Positions 10,106 to 58,473 of a stretch of DNA of 64,000 bases are shown here, one piece after another. Made by a program: the position numbers and the translations under genes. Location of the stretch: assembly GCA_951406725.2 (NCBI GenBank), contig OX597815.1:13082001-13146000 (forward strand). The letters are read 5' to 3'. The DNA comes from Octopus vulgaris (taxonomy: Eukaryota). How positions within the stretch are numbered: the stretch's first letter is position 1; every line of letters starts with the position of its first letter. The notes beneath the pieces are model-generated. The model was not told where the DNA came from. It saw only the letters and a program-made list of their open reading frames with translations, and ran no database searches.

Positions 10106-10260
10106 AAGAAGAAAAAGAAGTAGAAGAAGAAGAAAAAGAAGAAGAAGAAGAAGAAAAAGAAGTAGAAGAAGAAGAAAAAGAAGAAGAAGGAGAAGAGGAA
10201 GAAGAAGAAGATGAAGAAGAAAAATAACAACAACATGAAGAAGGACAGCAACAACAACAA
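9950..10260. repeat. Compound trinucleotide microsatellite (AAT)n(GAT)n(AAT)n(GAA)n(CAA)n
   Basis: Read directly from the sequence. Confidence 0.95.
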
Positions 10261-10261
10261 A

Positions 10262-11090
10262 GCTGAGGGGGAAGATTTCATATTAGCTGCCCAAGACCAA
10301 AGCTTATTAACCCGGAACTACCAAGCCAATGTGATAAAAAATGGAGCTGACCCAAAATGCCGATTCTGTAACGATGAGATTGAAACAATAGACCTCCGAA
10401 TCTCAGGGTGTAGAGTCTTAGCACCTGCAGAATATAAAGCAAGACATGACAGAGTCGGCCAGTTTTTACACTGGACAATATGTCGGCATTATAAAATTAA
10501 AACCGCTGACAAATCGTATAAACGCCATCCTGAAGCTGTAACTGAGGGAGAAAATGTGTCGATTCTATGGGACTTCCCCGTACAGACCGACAAAACTCTA
10601 AAAGCTAATAAACCGGATATCATTATAAAAGATCTGACAAAAATGGTGTGTTTATTAATTGACATGAGTATTCCTTGCGACAAAATATAACGGCGAAAGA
10701 ATTTGTCGAGATCAGTTAATATAAAACTTGCTAATAGAAATTGAAAAACTGGCATCTCAAGTCGACAACAGTATCGGTGATTGTAGAATCTCTAGGAATG
10801 ATAAAAAACCTATTTGAAAATGATTCCAGGCTTACTGTTCCTACAGGAAGCGCAAAAAGTCGTGTTAACTGGAACGGCTCATGTACTGAGAAGAGCATTA
10901 TCGCTGTGAAAACAAAATCCATTCATGGATATATTTATTTAGCCATTTTGTAAAATACATATTTTACCTGTGGATTTGCGTGTGTAATCTAGGAATGCAT
11001 ACAATGAGCTTCTCTGCCCCAGTTGTACAGAAAACACTTGCCGAGAAATGGAGGATAATTTGAAGAAGGAATGAAAATATGATAATATCA
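10262..11090 (+). mobile_element. 5'-truncated R4/Dong-clade non-LTR retrotransposon (zinc knuckle plus restriction-like endonuclease) with 3' UTR
   Basis: FILAAQDQSLLTRNY..KCRFCNDEIETIDLRISGC..EYKARHDRVGQFLHW..ILWDFPVQTDKTLKANKPDIIIKD..CLLIDMSIPCD: CCHC-derived knuckle, RHD, and PD-(D/E)xK region. The 3' UTR is shared with 41330-41500. Confidence 0.9.
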
Positions 11091-12092: not shown

Positions 12093-12568
12093 TTTATATA
12101 TAAATATATATATAATTGTATTTTCTACCAGTAATTACAAATAGAACAGGTTGAATTGCTTCTTTTCAAGGACAAGGGCAGCGCTCAGAGTGGTCGCTGG
12201 TAGTAATAAGTACATTTGACCTCTCCTGTCATAAAGGGTATAAAAAATATTTTGTCACTATGGCTGACCTCCCCACGTTCTTCCAGTTTGTTTTTATAGA
12301 CCTGTAGAATTTGATCTATTCACCAAGCTGCTTCTCTTGCCCTAACTCTTTCCTTCAACAACCACATATTTACGATTATCTCAAGTGCAGGACAAAAGTT
12401 AGAAGTAAAGAAATTTAATAATAAAGGGAAATAGCAATAATGATAATAACAATAGTAGTGGTGGTCACGGTGATAATGATAACAATAACAATAGTGATAT
12501 GCTGCAGCTGCTACTACTACAACTACTACTATATAGCCCATGAATCTGTGGCCCAACTACAACTACCA

Positions 12569-13149
12569 ATTTCTTTACTGCCCACAAGGGGCTAAACACA
12601 GTGGGGACAAACAAGGACAGACAAACGGATTAAGTCTATTACATCGACCCCAGTGCGTAACTGGTACTTAATTTATCGACCCCGTAAGGATGAAAGGCAA
12701 AGTCGACCTCGGCGGAATTTGAACTCAGAACGTAACGGCAGATGAAATACCTATTTCTTTACTACCCTCAAGGGGCTAAACACAGAGGAGACAAACAAGG
12801 ACAGACAAACGGATTAAGTCGATTACATCGACACCAGTGCGTAACTGGTTCTTAACTTATCGACCCCGAAAGGATGAAAGGCAAAGTCGACCTCGGCGGA
12901 ATTTGAACTCAGAACGTAACGGCAGATGAAATACCTATTTCTTTACTACCCACAAGGAGCTAAACACAGAGGAGACAAACAAGGACAGACAAACGGATTA
13001 AGTCGATTACATCGACACCAGTGCGCAACTGGTTCTTAACTTATCGACCCCGAAAGCATGAAAGGCAAAGTCGACCTCCGCGGAATTTGAACTCAGAACG
13101 TAGCTAAGCATTTCGCCCAATGTGCTAACAGTTCTGCCAGCTCACCGCC
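12569..13149 (-). mobile_element. tRNA-derived SINE family B as a tandem trimer (one head, three 184 bp bodies)
   Basis: atttcttt unit starts at 12569, 12753 and 12937; the head (ggcggtgagctggcaga) occurs only at 13149; aactac(a/c)actacc on both flanks resembles a TSD. Confidence 0.9.
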
Positions 13150-25489: not shown

Positions 25490-26515
25490 GTTTGGTATGA
25501 GGCGATTCATAGATTATTGAATTTAAATCACTACTAAACAGTTTAAATCCAAATATTCATTCTACATTGTAGGATAGTAAAGAAGAACTCCCATTCCTTG
25601 ATTTTTTAATAAGAAATGTCAAACTAATTGAAACTGATATTTGTCACAAACCGACGGACTGGAAGCATATCTTCTGATTACTTCATGCAAACCAAAACAC
25701 ATCAAACGAAATATTCCTTTTAATTTAGCGAAACGGATTTGCACAATAATGTCTGATGTTAATTCTCGGTAACTTCGACTTCAAGAACCTAGATCAACAC
25801 TTGACAAGAGATATATCTACCCTCACCTATAGATCATAGAAGTAAACGTTCCAAGAAATAGGCATTAAAACACCAAGGGAAACAAAACGAAATGTCTCAC
25901 CTCATCTAAAACTACAACCCTCTCCATCAGCCAACGAATGTAGAAACAATGAAGTATTCAAGACCATTAATCAATATCTACCGATGCTCAATACGTATCC
26001 AAAGATGAACCACATCCTACAAACACATAAATTCATCAAGTGTAAAAATCATCCCAAATCACTGAAATTACTATTGACATATGCGAAGCTATACCCAAAA
26101 CAATGAAACCAATAGACAAAAAATGAGGACGACGAAATTGTGGAACATGCCCCACCTACTGGAAGGTTTGGAATTCCATTTCAAACACGGAGAGAGATTC
26201 ACACGGAAAACCAATATCAGGTGTGCACCTGAAAATTTATTTTATGTGACAACTAGTTCAGGTTATGGACAAAACTCTATAGGCGAAACAAGAATTTCAC
26301 TTAAACGGAGAACTACACTGCATAAGAAATAAATACGATTTCCAAGTCCACAATTTAAACAGATACCATTGAATCACTACTTAGAGAGCTGTGTAGGGAA
26401 TCTCCAACCATGCTTCACAGTTTCCTCCATCTACCAGGAATAAATTTCTATACAAGAATGATTAAATAAAGAAAATATGTTTATTGAAAAATACAAGCCT
26501 TGCCTGAATATGAAC
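25490..26515 (+). pseudogene. Decayed Penelope-like element ORF: RT C-terminus/thumb plus GIY-YIG endonuclease
   Basis: EFKSLLNSLNPNIH..EELPFLDFLI..IETDICHKPTD..PKHIKRNIPFNLAKRICTI (PLE RT), then TNIRCAPENLFYVTTSSGYGQNSIGETRISLKRRTTLHK (GIY-YIG, ORF 26081-26332), ending ENMFIEKYKPCLN. Multiple stops and frameshifts. Confidence 0.88.
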
Positions 26516-35565: not shown

Positions 35566-36393
35566 TCATATATACACGCTCACTCACACACGCATGCACA
35601 CACATAAATATGCAAAGAAGAAAAGTAAATTAATAATAGTTTATAATAACTATTAACTTCCTAATCCCCATTTTCTATTCTTCTTTTCAATGGATACAGA
35701 CTTTATGATTTATATATACCTATTGTTTTAAGGGAATTTCATTCCCCCCAAAATACTAGGTATTCTACCAGTATTTCCTCTTCACGAGGCTAACATGTTT
35801 TCTAATTAAACTGATACATCCATGTGTATAATGCTGAAAATTCCCTCAACTTCGCCCCTGGGGTGTGAGTAGAAATGTACTCCTTTTATTTTTTCCGTAT
35901 ATTTTAACTGTATCTATACCCAACCCCTTTGAAAATTAATCAATCTACCTCTAATTTGACCCTACTCATACTTGTCTATTCAATTCTATACTCCGCTCTT
36001 TACTGTAGCATCCCACCTCCAATACCAGCTGAATTTCTTTGTCCCACTAACAACGTATTTTGACCACCTTCTCACCCCACACAACTACTGAACCAGTCAA
36101 CTCATTTCTCCCAAATAATAACAATCCCTTTTCACTATCTCGACCTTTAACTCCATAGCCTTCATACCAGCTAATACAAAGGTCATTATTCACATACTAC
36201 CTAAACCACCCTTCCATCTTCCACATCTACTACTATTACTAGCCTCATAATAAACCCTAAACCCGAAATCTATTTCCTCCTCCCGCTACTCTCTATCTAA
36301 ACACCCCAACTCCTCTTCCTAATACACTTAGTTCTTCACAAAATCATTCCATCTTTAAACTCCATTCTGTCAACATCTCAAATGTAAAATACT

Positions 36394-36484
36394 TCCCTAA
36401 AGACGGTGGGTGGTAGTATCCGATGATGGAATCAAGTTGCAGTCGGAATTGTGGACCATCAAAGCTCCGGAAACAGCAGTAGGG
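36394..36484 (+). ncRNA. Degenerate type I hammerhead with long stem II
   Basis: tcc CTAAAGA cgg..(60 nt)..ccg GAAA cagcag TA ggg; G5A core change and near-palindromic stem III (acagc(t/a)gt). Confidence 0.35.
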
Positions 36485-36965
36485 CTCGTTAAACTCTTAC
36501 TCAACACATTTCATTACTGATATCATTTATATTCTGTATAAGTCGGACTCCTTTTATACGCATACACATGTAGATTTTTTTTTGTATTAATTGTATTTAA
36601 TATCTTTTGTATATCGACTTGCCTAATATGCTTATCCTTACATTTACTCCTCTAAATGCTCTAGTTCAAATCTCTTGAGCACTACGAAGTGTATTCTATA
36701 CAGAGAATGCCTATCTCTGATCTATCTATCTATGTATGTATATATATATATATATAATGATAAATATCAAAGTGAGTTATATACAGTAGCGGTAACACAT
36801 CGTGACGTATATTTGCCATTTCAATATGGCTACCCCTAAGGGTGGATGCTACTGTAGTTTTTAGCCCCAGGAGGACACACTCCTCCAGCTCGCCATAGAC
36901 ACACTTTCTGTGTCCTGTCAGTATTTGCAAAGGAAAGTCATCCTTCCCGTCTTCAACTTTTGATA

Positions 36966-37010
36966 CACACGGACTCGAGTTTCGAGGTATTGACCTCTCG
37001 TCAGCGTGTG
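36966..37010 (-). ncRNA. Type I hammerhead ribozyme (intact core)
   Basis: Exact reverse complement of 37436-37480. Confidence 0.88.
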
Positions 37011-37435
37011 ACAATCATAGTTGTCGCCGAGAATTAGATTTCCCTCACAAATACTTATACTTTTTCCAGCGTCCACTGTCGCTGATATTGAAAAAGTGAA
37101 ATCAAACAATGATAAATATCAAGGTGAGTTATATACAGTAGCGGTAACACATCGTGACGTATATTTGCCATTTCAATATGGCTACCCCTAAGGGTGGATG
37201 CTACTGTAGTTTTTAGCCCCAGGAGGACACACTCCTCCAGCTGGCCATAGACACACTTTCTGTGTCCTGTCAGTATTTGCAAAGTGAGTTACGATGTGTT
37301 ACCGCTACTGTATATAACTCACTTTGATATTTATCATTGTTTGATTTCACTTTTTCAATATCAGCGACAGTGGACGCTGGAAAAAGTATAAGTATTTGTG
37401 AGGGAAATCTAATTCTCGGCGACAACTATGATTGT

Positions 37436-37480
37436 CACACGCTGACGAGAGGTCAATACCTCGAAACTCGAGTCCGTGTG
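37436..37480 (+). ncRNA. Type I hammerhead ribozyme (intact core; predicted cleavage after GUC at 37474)
   Basis: cacacg CTGACGA gaggt caat acctc GAAA ctcgag TC cgtgtg: stem I 6 bp, stem II 5 bp, palindromic stem III ACTCGAGT. Confidence 0.9.
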
Positions 37481-37648
37481 TATCAAAAGTTGAAGACGGG
37501 AAGGATGACTTCCCTTTGCAAATACTGACAGGACACAGAAAGTGTGTCTATGGCCAGCTGGAGGAGTGTGTCCTCCTGGGGCTAAAAACTACAGTAGCAT
37601 CCACCCTTAGGGGTAGCCATATTGAAATGGCAAATATACGTCACTATA

Positions 37649-37690
<42 letters not shown>

Positions 37691-37761
37691 AATATATATA
37701 TATATACATACATATATATATATATATATATATGTAAATATATATATATATACATACATAC

Positions 37762-37794
<33 letters not shown>

Positions 37795-37918
37795 TATATA
37801 TATATATATATACATGTATATATACATATATATATATATATAAATATGTATGTATGTATGTATATATATATATATATATGTGTGTGTTTATAGATAAATA
37901 GATATAGATATGTATGTA

Positions 37919-37966
<48 letters not shown>

Positions 37967-38578: not shown

Positions 38579-38599
38579 ACTGTATGTGAACATACATAT

Positions 38600-39011
38600 A
38601 TTTCTTTAATGCCCACCAGGGGCTAAACATAGAGGGGACGAACAAAGACAGGCAAAGGGATTAAGTCGATTACATCGACTCCAGTGCGAAACTGGTACTT
38701 TATTTATCGACCCTGAAAGTATGAAAGGCAAAGTCGACCTTGGTGGAATTTGAACTGAGAGCGTAACGACAGAGGAAAGACCTATTTCTTTATTACCCAC
38801 AAGGGGCTAAACATAGAGGGGACAAACAAGGACAGACATAGGTAGTAAGTCGATTACATCGACTCCAGTGCGTAACTGGTACTTAATTTATAGACCCTGA
38901 ATGGATGAAAGGCAACGTCGACCTCGGTGGAATTTGAACTCACAACGTAACGACGGAGGAAATACCGCTAAGCATTTCGCCCGGCGCGCTAACGTTTCTG
39001 CCAGGTCGCCG
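38600..39011 (-). mobile_element. SINE family B tandem dimer (one head, two 184 bp bodies)
   Basis: atttcttt unit starts at 38600 and 38784; single head at 39011. Confidence 0.88.
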
Positions 39012-41329: not shown

Positions 41330-42555
41330 TATTTTTCCTACTATCTTCAAATTTTCTTCCATTTCTCGCCGAGTGTTTTCCGTACACCTAGGGCAGAGAA
41401 GCTCATTGTATGCATTCCCAGATTACGCACGCACATTCACAGGTAAAATATGTATTTAAAAATTAATAAATAAATAAATTCATGAATGGATGTTTTCACA
41501 GCAATAATACTATTCTCAGTACATGAGCCGTTCCAGTTAACACGACTTTTTGCACTTCCTTTAGGCATGGTAAGCCTGGTATCATTCTCAAATAGGTTTC
41601 AGTACCTTTTTTTTTTATCATTCCCAGAGACCCTACAATCAGCGGTACTGTAGTCGCCTTGAGATGCCACATTTTTTCAATTTCTATTAGCAGGTCTTTA
41701 TATTTACTAATCTTGTCAAATTCTTTCGCCGCTATATTGTGATCGCAAGGAATATTTTTATCAATTAATAAACACATCATTTTTGTCTGATCTTTTATAG
41801 TAATATCCGGTTTATTAGCTTTTATAGTTTAGTCGGTATGTACGGGCAAGTCCCAGAGAATCAACACATTAAATGGTGTTTATACCATTTGTCTGCAGTT
41901 TTGATTTTATAATGCCAGCATATTGTCAAATGTACATACTGGCCGACTCTGTTATGTCTTGTTTTATATTCTACAGGGTTTAATACTCTACACCCTGGGA
42001 TTAGGTGGTCTGTTGTTTCAATCTCAACGTTACAGAATCGGCATTTGGGGTCAGCCCAATTTTTTATCACATTGGCTTGGTAGCTCCGGGTTAATAAGCT
42101 TTGATCTTGAGCAGCTAATATGAAACCTTCACTCTCTGCTTTTAGCCCTGAGTTTCGTAACCATTGGTTGGCGCATTTCCTTCACCCTGATCAATTTGGT
42201 AGATATCTAGGAGATCAGTAGCGAAATTTTTGCTCTCTTTCAGAATTGAGTGAAGTTTTTTCGGTCTTTCATTTTTTTCAATATTTTATAGCATCAAATC
42301 GCTGGTCACTTCAAGGTATTTGGTCAGCCCGATTGTGCTGGTTTTGTACGTAATTTCAAGCTGGATGAAGCCTCGACCTCCCTGAGCTCTGCGAAGGTAA
42401 AGACGATCCACTAGGATGCTTGGAGAACTCATATGTGTTTTGGCTGATGAGTACGGGACACTTGTATTTGCTGCAATATTTGCAGCTTTTAATAAAGCTT
42501 GTCTTCGTATGAAACAATTGTACTGAAAAACTAATCCATTCTTGTTGCTTTTTTC
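41330..42555 (-). mobile_element. 5'-truncated R4/Dong-clade LINE, same family as 10262-11090, with (TAA)n tail
   Basis: Minus-strand frames KCRFCNVEIETTDHLIPGC..EYKTRHNRVGQY and CLLIDKNIPCD..KEFDKISKYKDLLIEIEKMWHLKATTVPLIVGSLG..EVQKVVLTGTAHVLR; frameshifted. Confidence 0.9.
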
Positions 42556-42556
42556 T

Positions 42557-42607
<51 letters not shown>

Positions 42608-43589
42608 GCGATGGAATATGAATTGCTTAAGCGTTTTATGTGACATTTCAAACGGATATATGAACTTTTGAAAGAAATCAGAGCTGTTCTACTCTTGATA
42701 CATTCATTAATTAATAACATAGGCAAAGTTAAGTACCAATATAAGCTAAATAATTAACCTTTGTTGTGACGCAAGTAATATTAAAGGTGTGTATTTATGT
42801 GTATCTGTGCGTGTTCAAACACATGAGAATGATAATCAATATTGAAACTGCGAACCAGGACCCTCATTTAAGGAAACATAACGCGTGTAGAACTGAATAT
42901 ATACATGTGTATAAAATATGGCGTATGGAATTAATATTAGCTAAATGCTTAAAATAAATCATGATTAATTTGGTAGACAATGTAATCGTAACAGCACGCT
43001 CTTTGAGCAGTTATGAATTATACTGTACAAGACAATAACATTTTCAAAATTATAATTGATGCTGATCTGAGTAGTGTTAACTTTTTTTTAAAGGAATTAA
43101 TTGAGGATGAGATATGAATAAGCTCCGCTCTTATTCATTATCGAAGATTGTATGAGAAAATAGTTTACACGTAAAAGAATTGCAATTAATCACTAAATTG
43201 AATGTTTAAAATTGGAAAAAATACATACCTTTTAACTGTCTTCCGGAGAAGACCTGTTTTAGCACATTGTGAAATTATAAAATTCATTTTATTATCACTC
43301 CAATATTGTGAAGCCTAAAATAAGTATTAAGTATATAAGATTTTTGCACTTTAATTGGAAGAATAATTAAACAATTTCTAAATTTAATTTCTACTCACTC
43401 TAATAAATAGTACAATTACTTTTTAGCATTGTACAGTCATCTTTATTGTTATCTATTCCTGCTGTAACAATTGTTTTTACCGTGAAACACTTCAATCCAA
43501 ATAATTAAATCAATAACTAGGATAGATATTTATGTATTCTTTGTGGCAACGGTCTACGAAATAATAAATGCCTCCAAAACGCCTGCATG

Positions 43590-45525: not shown

Positions 45526-45556
45526 ATAATATTAATAATAATAATATTAATAATAT

Positions 45557-46028
45557 CGTAACGCATATTTGCCATTTGAATATGGCTAACCCCTAAGGGT
45601 GGATGCTACTGTAGTTTGTAGCCCCAGTAGTGTTACCGCTACTGTTTATAACTCGCTTTGAGATTTATCATTGTTTGATTTCACTTTTTCAATATCAGCG
45701 TCAATCGACAGTGGAAAAAGTATATGTATTTGTGAGGGAAACTGAATTCTCGTCGACAACTATGATTGTCACACGCTGATGATAGGTAAACACCTTGAAA
45801 CTCGAGTCCGTGTGTATCATAAGTTGAAGACGGGAAGGATGACTTCCCTTCACAAATACTGATAGGGCACAGATAGTGTGTCTATAGCCAGCTGGAGGAG
45901 ATATCTTCCTGGGGCTACAAACTACAGTAGCATCAACCCTTAGGGGTTAGCCATATTCAAATGGCAAATATGCGTCACGATGTGTTACCGCTACTGTTTA
46001 TAACTCGCTCTGAGATTTATCATTGTTT
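45557..46028. mobile_element. Second copy of the 352 bp retrozyme-like element: 71 bp inverted arm plus a plus-strand unit with ~46 bp terminal redundancy
   Basis: 45557-45627 is in minus orientation; tgttaccgctactg occurs at 45631 and 45983 (period 352); embedded in (TAA)n. Confidence 0.88.
45770..45814 (+). ncRNA. Type I hammerhead ribozyme
   Basis: cacacg CTGATGA t aggt aaac acct t GAAA ctcgag TC cgtgtg; intact core, with the first pair of stem II a U-U mismatch. Confidence 0.8.
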
Positions 46029-57308: not shown

Positions 57309-58473
57309 AACAATTTCTTCCATATTACCAGAGTTGTTATTATTTGATTCTGCTATTTTACAACTTGAAATGTCATCACTTTCACCCCTGATCGCCTCTA
57401 GCTCCGATATCATTTTATTATATTTTTGTTTGAACGATTCGTTGAAATTACTTTTATAATTCCGCTGGCAGACTCAATCTTATTGAAGTGCTTACTCTTT
57501 AGCCTTTTGAACCGACTATATGCTTACAGACGTGCTTGTATATGAAATCTTATCCATGTATATATGCGTGTGTGTGTGTGTGCATGTGTGTCTATACGTG
57601 TTTGTATATGTGCGTAAGTGTATGTATACGTATATATGTGTATGTATATATATGTGTGTGTGTGTACGTATGTGTATGAAGTTTTAAATCTCTGATCGAG
57701 AAGTAAGTAGTAAGTGTACTACAGAGTAAAATCTATAAGGGGTTCTTTATATAATCTACAGTCGGGTGTGATTGAATAAGTAACTAGCTTCGCCACAAGA
57801 AAATCGAATGAGAAGTAAAGGGAAATAGTGAAGCAAAGAACGCAGTTATGCGTCGTTAGCCAGCTGGAAAGATGTTTTCCTGGGGTTAAAGAAGTGAGTG
57901 ACATCGTCCAAATAATGACTGACAACTTACGCTGGAAAGTAGAGTTTACTCTGTATTATTGTTCCTAGGTACTTCTCGCTCTAATTCTTTTTTCCGCTTT
58001 ACGACATCAGTGATGTGTGTCATTTTAAAAGTATATACCTCGAACAAGACCTAGTGATGCCATCGCTAAGGAAACAGTAATCCTGTGCTGCGAAATAACC
58101 CAGAAATCATGGCCAAAGGTACCGTATATATATACCCATCTCTTACCTCTTGAATCTTATGGCTTATATACTATTTATGAAATGATTTCATGGTTCGGAT
58201 ATTCTTGATGTCAGCTGCATTGACTTTCTACATTACATTTGTCTGTATTGGATTACTATGTGGGTGGTTACCTGAGTCCGTAAGAGGAGGTTTATGAAAT
58301 AGCTACACGATTCGTTGAATCCTCATCGTATACTACCATTTTATATACATGTGCATGCAGTATGTGCATGCATATATAAACATACAAACACAGTAAGTCT
58401 ATATATATATATATATATATGCAGTTATGGATACATAGACATACACACACATACATACATACATACACACACA

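Follow-up and report, generated by a model that had tools for sequence, protein, structure and literature searches.

Among described mobile elements, the closest to the locus reported here are the animal non-LTR retrozymes, with units of 350–390 bp in mussel, the axolotl elements Rtz_331 and Rtz_353, and units of 225–245 bp in coral (Cervera & de la Peña 2020, PMC7229834). A link between retrozymes and Penelope-like elements (PLEs) was proposed in that paper and argued by Li, Clavereau & Pollet (2026, bioRxiv 10.64898/2026.07.22.740005). In the part of the preprint on which we draw, the evidence consists of co-occurrence and pLTR homology, mainly in vertebrates, and local tandem amplification is favored. 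PLEs themselves leave a characteristic insertion signature: partial tandems, an inverted 5′-truncated copy, a tail of 30–40 bp that is often present at one end only, and a bias toward TA targets (PMC8557442).

We describe a family with a 352-nt unit in Octopus vulgaris, starting from an insertion at 36756–37644 of the window, by which we mean the whole 64,000-nucleotide stretch of DNA that was analyzed. On every feature open to test at the family level, the family is an animal non-LTR retrozyme; by analogy with its relatives, self-cleavage and a circular RNA are putative here. The reading we favor, at a probability of roughly 0.68, is that of a dispersed non-coding non-LTR retrozyme whose RNA is likely cut, circularized, and copied by PLE enzymes into (TA)n. 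In the insertion, 529 nt of minus-strand sequence meet ~354 nt of plus-strand sequence, the two arms being joined 5′ to 5′. The parts of this insertion, and those of a second one in the window, are as follows.

36717..36755, no strand: left target microsatellite, (CTAT)n/(TA)n, short, at the 3′ end of an older repeat
36756..37284, minus strand: left arm, 1.5 units (unit positions 176–352, then 1–352), whose long 3′ end, T2, with a ~46-nt tail, abuts (TA)n
36966..37010, minus strand: left-arm type I hammerhead, with cleavage predicted after 36972 by symmetry with the plus copy
37285..37290, no strand: junction insert between the left and right arms
37291..37644, plus strand: right arm, about one unit (unit positions 305–352, then 1–306), whose short 3′ end, T1, abuts (TA)n
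37428..37488, plus strand: right-arm type I hammerhead with an extended stem I and internal loop, a 5-bp stem II, a 2-bp stem III, and a palindromic tetraloop cap; C17, the cleavage nucleotide predicted from the motif, is 37474 (unit position 136)
37645..37964, no strand: right target microsatellite, a (TA)n array
45553..46028, plus strand: second insertion, subfamily B, with a 90% identical unit; it lies in (AAT)n and consists of a short inverted arm, which stops at T1, and 1.1 units with their end at T2

The first-pass annotation of this DNA had described a 352-nt unit present as about 1.5 minus-strand copies joined to one plus-strand copy inside (TA)n, and alignment bears this out: the direct repeat (36756–36932 and 37108–37284) has a spacing of 352 nt and 99% identity, and the inverted pair within the insertion spans 365 nt at 98% identity. 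The half unit of the left arm is without a ribozyme, a point absent from that annotation. The locus therefore has one hammerhead per strand and fewer than 2 consecutive ribozyme-bearing units, and this copy could not release a monomer itself; it would be a daughter copy, not a source. At the junction, 37280–37291 is an exact 12-nt repeat of 36768–36779, which is what a microhomology template jump would leave. The insertion sits in the terminal microsatellite of an older repeat family, whose 3′ end occupies 36330–36720 (~80% identity, 1,516 candidates). That older repeat seems to have 2 3′ ends, occurs in inverted copies as well, and carries a hammerhead-like motif around 36420–36480; a search of 12 of its loci gave no PLE coding match.

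Each full unit carries the canonical type I hammerhead that had been claimed for it, with the CUGACGA core, the 5-bp stem II, GAAA, and GUC all present. The unit was also correctly called non-coding: the longest ATG-initiated frame on the circular unit is 38 aa, and no PLE protein match falls within the units. The Rfam model Hammerhead_1 matches 37436–37480 on the plus strand and 37010–36966 on the minus strand, each at 32.2 bits (E 6.5e-6) over all 45 model positions. This score is below the model's gathering score of 34, so the unit match is seen at an E-value threshold only, and a gathering-threshold scan of the whole window returned 0 matches; the Infernal check that had been proposed thus gave a full-length match, with a score short of the gathering cut-off. 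The motif is not a chance occurrence, since a 33-nt pattern of the A and B ribozymes has 538 exact matches in the genome and a 26-nt core motif has 3,018, with 0 matches for the reversed control in either case. The latter number also points to a dispersed, genome-wide family.

The unit, its motif, and its copy number are thus directly observed, and they agree with the published class. The unit measures 352/353 nt with a GC of 0.426 and forms arrays of up to 6 units, as a non-LTR retrozyme should, with its tandem unit of 150–450 bp, GC below 50%, a type I hammerhead in each unit, and no coding capacity. Like the retrozymes of PMC7229834, the family combines a non-coding tandem unit of ~350 nt (GC 43% here) with a canonical type I hammerhead, a 2-bp stem III, and a palindromic tetraloop; the predicted circle is highly self-paired, and autonomous PLEs are found in the same genome. 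Unlike them, it belongs to a different sequence family, and its cleavage and circular RNA are predicted. Li et al. define an “active” retrozyme by at least 2 consecutive ribozyme units, an arrangement present in the family (15 of 70 insertions, with 2–6 same-strand ribozymes in tandem) and not at 36756–37644. These 15 insertions could be source arrays. The proposal that the locus is a non-autonomous, hammerhead-carrying element of retrozyme type fits every feature open to computational testing.

The family is young. A first look with the 352-nt unit gave 2,448 genome candidates, and the 40 of these that were scored are mostly 97–99% identical. In its arrays as many as 6 identical units follow one another head to tail, uninterrupted by any ORF. 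Subfamily B and families C and F share the layout of the unit. The base of stem II is a U.U mismatch in the subfamily B hammerhead at 45553–46028, as in axolotl HHR_Amex2 (PMC7229834). Family C is 70–80% identical, with a unit of ~352–354 nt. Family F (L152–L181, e.g., L173) is a distant colinear homologue with a 362-nt tandem unit (2,724 candidates), a U3-A8 hammerhead, an ACAUGU palindrome in stem III, and 2 3′ ends ~52 nt apart. Among A, B, C, and F the catalytic core switches between C3-G8 and U3-A8. A decayed distant relative of the unit lies at 57685–58090 of the window (profile E 1.6e-7 at 57835–57984, with a weak inverted piece at 57685–57735). The same insertion with the same flanks occurs at L136 and at L142/L143, ~1 Mb apart and in opposite orientation, likely through segmental duplication. 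In sequencing runs, the unit and its head-to-tail joint are present in contigs of X1, X5, X7, and X9 (4 of 24 runs, whose status as RNA is a guess), and the whole unit occurs in contigs of a second organism (run X5). One 383-nt contig wraps round a 353-nt unit; in such contigs a circle, a tandem transcript, and DNA look the same.

Several features bear on the RNA structure of the unit. The circular subfamily A unit folds with a z of −7.4 against 40 shuffles in sense and of −3.8 in antisense; in subfamilies B and C the antisense folds nearly as well as the sense. A model of 47 pairs, laid over 19 aligned copies, leaves 92.4% of cells paired. Double changes are found in 10 of the 47 pairs in this 19-row alignment, stems I and II included, and the palindrome pair of loop 3 is kept as UA, CG, or UG in all 19 rows. 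Covariation gives 0/500 with cell-based controls and, with 2 more reliable controls, 73/500 (pair count) and 499/500 (pair type), which is not significant; given these controls, and because the 19 rows derive from only about 5 lineages, the covariation is suggestive only that changes between subfamilies keep the RNA structure.

Predicted energies point the other way for cleavage of a monomer. The active hammerhead fold of the 61-mer (−12.6 kcal/mol) lies 5.9 kcal/mol above the minimum free energy (MFE) structure (−18.5 kcal/mol), the hammerhead fold is missing from the MFE structure of the circular unit, and the pair that closes stem II is unpaired or mismatched in 15 of the 19 aligned copies (subfamilies B and C). 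In these models, a non-MFE active fold and a stem II closing mismatch would count against efficient monomer cleavage. According to published work, a stem III of 1–2 bp and a palindromic loop together mark hammerheads that act as dimers (PMC4209133), and among the retrozyme dimers assayed by Li et al. (bioRxiv 10.64898/2026.07.22.740005), only 1 of 9 cleaved.

Evidence on mobilization comes from how the copies end. Target bias, both kinds of end, and inverted 5′-to-5′ junctions were read directly from 70 distinct insertions. Of these, 19 come from a first search (30 loci before overlaps were merged), 30 make up the whole of a second set, and 21 come from a core-motif set of 30, which was reduced by seven loci that overlap or duplicate others and by the old direct copies L133 and L145. 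Most samples were chosen by best score, and arm lengths and 5′ ends are biased thereby. In these insertions, 3′ ends fall at 2 fixed sites ~46 nt apart, T1 (unit position 306/309) and T2 (352/355), and 5′ ends scatter. Inverted insertions number 37: 30 pair T1 with T2, 1 pairs T2 with T2, none pairs T1 with T1, and 6 have one irregular end, so that T1+T2 accounts for 30 of 31 regular cases (p 3e-8 against an even split). The same pairing holds in 9 of 10 inverted insertions of a position-ordered subset and, in family F, for 10 of 14 (one pair probably duplicated), with the same end never present twice and with a query that favored T2. Direct insertions (n = 33) end at T1 in 24 cases and at T2 in 9. 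A possible minor third 3′ end, around unit position 270–272, is seen at L018, L032, L037, and L094.

Of the 70 insertions, 59 have a (TA)4 stretch no more than 25 nt from an end; the background rate is 11%. Longer target duplications have 5 candidates among the 70, three of them clear and 13–15 nt long (L058, L121, and L146); at these three loci the duplications exceed 4 bp, as expected of non-LTR retrozymes when present. They become visible at targets other than pure TA, and the remaining duplications are hidden in (TA)n. No LTR-type layout occurs in the insertions inspected. The traits of PLE insertions are all here, namely 5′ truncation, partial tandems, an inverted copy, a tail at one end, and a microsatellite target; since the insertions end as those of PLEs do, the unit is likely copied by PLE enzymes. 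The family shares partial tandems, the inverted 5′-truncated copy, the one-end tail, the (TA)n bias, and a hammerhead with EN+ PLEs (Neptune/Nematis) and with MRC1 (Craig et al. 2021, PMC8557442). It differs from them in having no ORF, in that the whole element is the repeated unit, in its canonical rather than minimal hammerhead, and in a tail of 46–49 rather than 30–40 nt.

This two-end footprint with its T1+T2 rule is what is new here; the retrozyme class and its PLE link were already known. The two-end, inverted pattern and the (TA)n targeting, measured here, do not figure in the sections of PMC7229834 on which our comparison is based. Like the retrozymes of Li et al. (bioRxiv 10.64898/2026.07.22.740005), ours co-occur with PLEs, range from monomers to multimers, and fit a proposed hijacking of PLE machinery. 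Unlike theirs, they show no detected pLTR homology, and the case for PLE involvement is built on the footprint that dispersed multimers left on insertion. The first-pass annotation knew of no description of the family. That holds for the family, since we found neither the 352-nt element nor an end rule for retrozymes described in the literature (with Dfam, Repbase, and supplements outside the search); it does not hold for the class, which is published (PMC7229834; bioRxiv 10.64898/2026.07.22.740005).

The arms of inverted insertions carry information on their template. Both arms share one haplotype in 11 of 11 inverted subfamily A insertions (23 insertions analyzed). Locus-private variants are common to both arms in 2 insertions, the 36756–37644 locus and L139, and the remaining private variants mostly occur in one unit each; conversion between arms may also be a source of the shared variants. 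The longer arm ends at T1 14 times and at T2 16 times, neither consistently. Arms run through the predicted cleavage site, where 5′ ends do not pile up: 4 of 107 fall within unit positions 130–143, about the uniform expectation. Shared haplotypes, balanced arm lengths, and the absence of a 5′-end pile-up at the cleavage site together indicate that no linear monomer released by cleavage served as the template. The RNA that was copied was a circle or else a linear multimer left uncleaved, two templates that genome sequence does not tell apart. We also rejected simple copy-back and classical twin priming from a single linear RNA, since neither the T1 arm nor the T2 arm is regularly the shorter one and the T2 arm runs on past T1.

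The alternative with the best claim to attention is a non-autonomous PLE copied from uncleaved linear multimers of a few homogeneous source arrays, with a hammerhead that is weak or serves only for trimming and with no need of a circle. This model accounts equally well for where copies end, what they target, the haplotype common to both arms, and the passage of arms through the cleavage site. The active fold that is not the MFE structure and the mismatched base of stem II in subfamilies B and C sit comfortably with it, and multicopy head-to-tail insertions are on record for non-autonomous PLEs, MRC1 among them (PMC8557442). We nevertheless think it unlikely: a unit length of 350–362 nt, the core, the loop-3 palindrome, and a long rod are kept across families 70–90% identical and in family F, and other animal retrozymes of similar size accumulate as circles (PMC7229834).

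A retrozyme copied in trans would have a PLE partner, and the genome offers a candidate. A search with the GIY-YIG profile PF01541 gave 6,136 genome candidates; among the best 150, which were scored, many lie in 781-codon open frames, intact in 16 of 18 stretches examined. The protein, of 765 aa, combines RT, a CxxxxCxxC linker as described for Neptune/Nematis-type PLEs (PMC8557442), and GIY-YIG, and has 569 full-length relatives among 7,999 candidates scored. The young, intact Neptune-type PLE at L103–L120 (e.g., L105:1890–4184) has an upstream pLTR and a tail of 33–38 nt that contains a palindrome. It was found to have ends of the same kind as the unit: it ends in (TA)n, has 2 3′ ends ~33–38 nt apart, and carries one end of each kind in 2 of 2 inverted copies (L108 and L120). 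Its tail is shorter than that of the unit (33–38 versus ~46 nt) and of different sequence. Its hammerhead-like motif has the U3-A8 core variant, common to family F and known from PLEs (PMC4209133). By its footprint only, this PLE is a candidate driver. The best 150 of 6,136 GIY-YIG candidates were scored and no homology was found, so the true driver may be another family. A broken old PLE fragment, running from the end of the RT to GIY-YIG and 33–42% identical to PLE proteins, is present in the window at 25513–26509.

The same resemblance raises the question of whether the unit is merely the pLTR or 3′ end of a coding PLE and its copies truncated elements. The end pattern is identical in kind to that of PLEs, family F and the local PLE hammerhead share both the U3-A8 core variant and the ACAUGU palindrome, and pLTR homology is reported for many Xenopus retrozymes (Li et al., bioRxiv 10.64898/2026.07.22.740005). 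Against this stand the arrays of up to 6 units without an intervening ORF, with 38 aa as the longest frame on the circle. Neither the pLTRs nor the 3′ UTRs at 48 PLE loci showed DNA homology to the unit, and no 3′-end sequence in common with it was found there, the partner search being among the best 150 of the 6,136 candidates. PLE coding sequence accompanies the unit in only 4 of 145 non-PLE loci (L036, L044, L053, and L152; 1.5-kb flanks), none in pLTR register. At L044, the closest case, (TA)n separates a 5′-truncated PLE fragment from the unit. No ORF with RT and GIY-YIG, as expected of an autonomous PLE, lies within the element. The first-pass annotation had named a unit that is always just the pLTR of a coding PLE as the outcome that would overturn its proposal, and these counts speak against that outcome. 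Two profile matches inside PLE loci were set aside as separate retrozyme insertions (L113, and L079, which led to family F). The shared end pattern without detected DNA homology means that the unit is neither the pLTR of the young PLE nor a truncated PLE. For the present copies the pLTR explanation is very improbable and largely refuted, and descent from an extinct pLTR is possible.

Spread at the DNA level as a satellite or minisatellite, by unequal crossover or extrachromosomal DNA circles, or mobilization by an ordinary LINE, is hardly tenable. The units are tandem, and LINE-like fragments are found in the window. Satellite spread and LINE action do not account for dispersed 1- to 6-mers with fixed 3′ and random 5′ ends, among which no poly(A) or LINE tail was found, or for the T1+T2 rule. 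L1-type twin priming leaves the inverted arm with a variable outer end; in the present insertions that end is fixed. Frames at 10166–10791, 41496–42688, and 1558–2052 resemble what we take to be LINE-type retrotransposon ends and a mariner-like transposase fragment. A 184-nt tandem repeat unit at 12564–13102 (2.9 copies) and 38599–38966 (2.0 copies) is probably a dispersed SINE-like element. Assembly is difficult where inverted repeats lie in microsatellites (PMC8557442), and the inverted arrangement could in principle come from misassembly or from long reads folding back; the probability of such an artefact is close to negligible. The 2 arms have separate fixed end sites, are told apart by private positions, and border on unique sequences that are not alike. 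Inverted insertions also make up 37 of the 70 and are seen in other families.

We return to the favored reading, a retrozyme copied by PLE enzymes. Arrays with at least 2 same-strand ribozymes would be the sources. Their transcripts may be cleaved through a double hammerhead formed across the palindromic loop 3, and the circle may be closed by a host ligase. The PLE RT/GIY-YIG enzyme would cut (TA)n, and the 2 target ends would prime cDNA at the fixed sites T1 and T2 on one template, with extension past the cleavage site. Truncated cDNA ends joined by microhomology would give an inverted multimer such as that at 36756–37644, which on this scheme would be a dead daughter copy. A bolder version is tentative: an old, independent circular-RNA lineage, comprising A, B, C, and F, would parasitize a PLE unrelated in sequence, and 2 RTs would roll round one circle from sites ~46 nt apart.

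The mobilizing enzyme and the template of animal retrozymes are still a matter of hypothesis in the publications on which we draw. This genome offers a young family with copies 97–99% identical, an end rule that can be counted, and an intact young PLE with the same rule, which together make a direct test of trans-mobilization possible. The 352-nt unit is also a minimal substrate for studying the unsolved mechanism of PLE integration. If 2 RTs do roll round one circle, these insertions would be direct genomic evidence that a circle can template retrotransposition in animals, and both the “tail” and the inverted structure of PLEs would have a general explanation.
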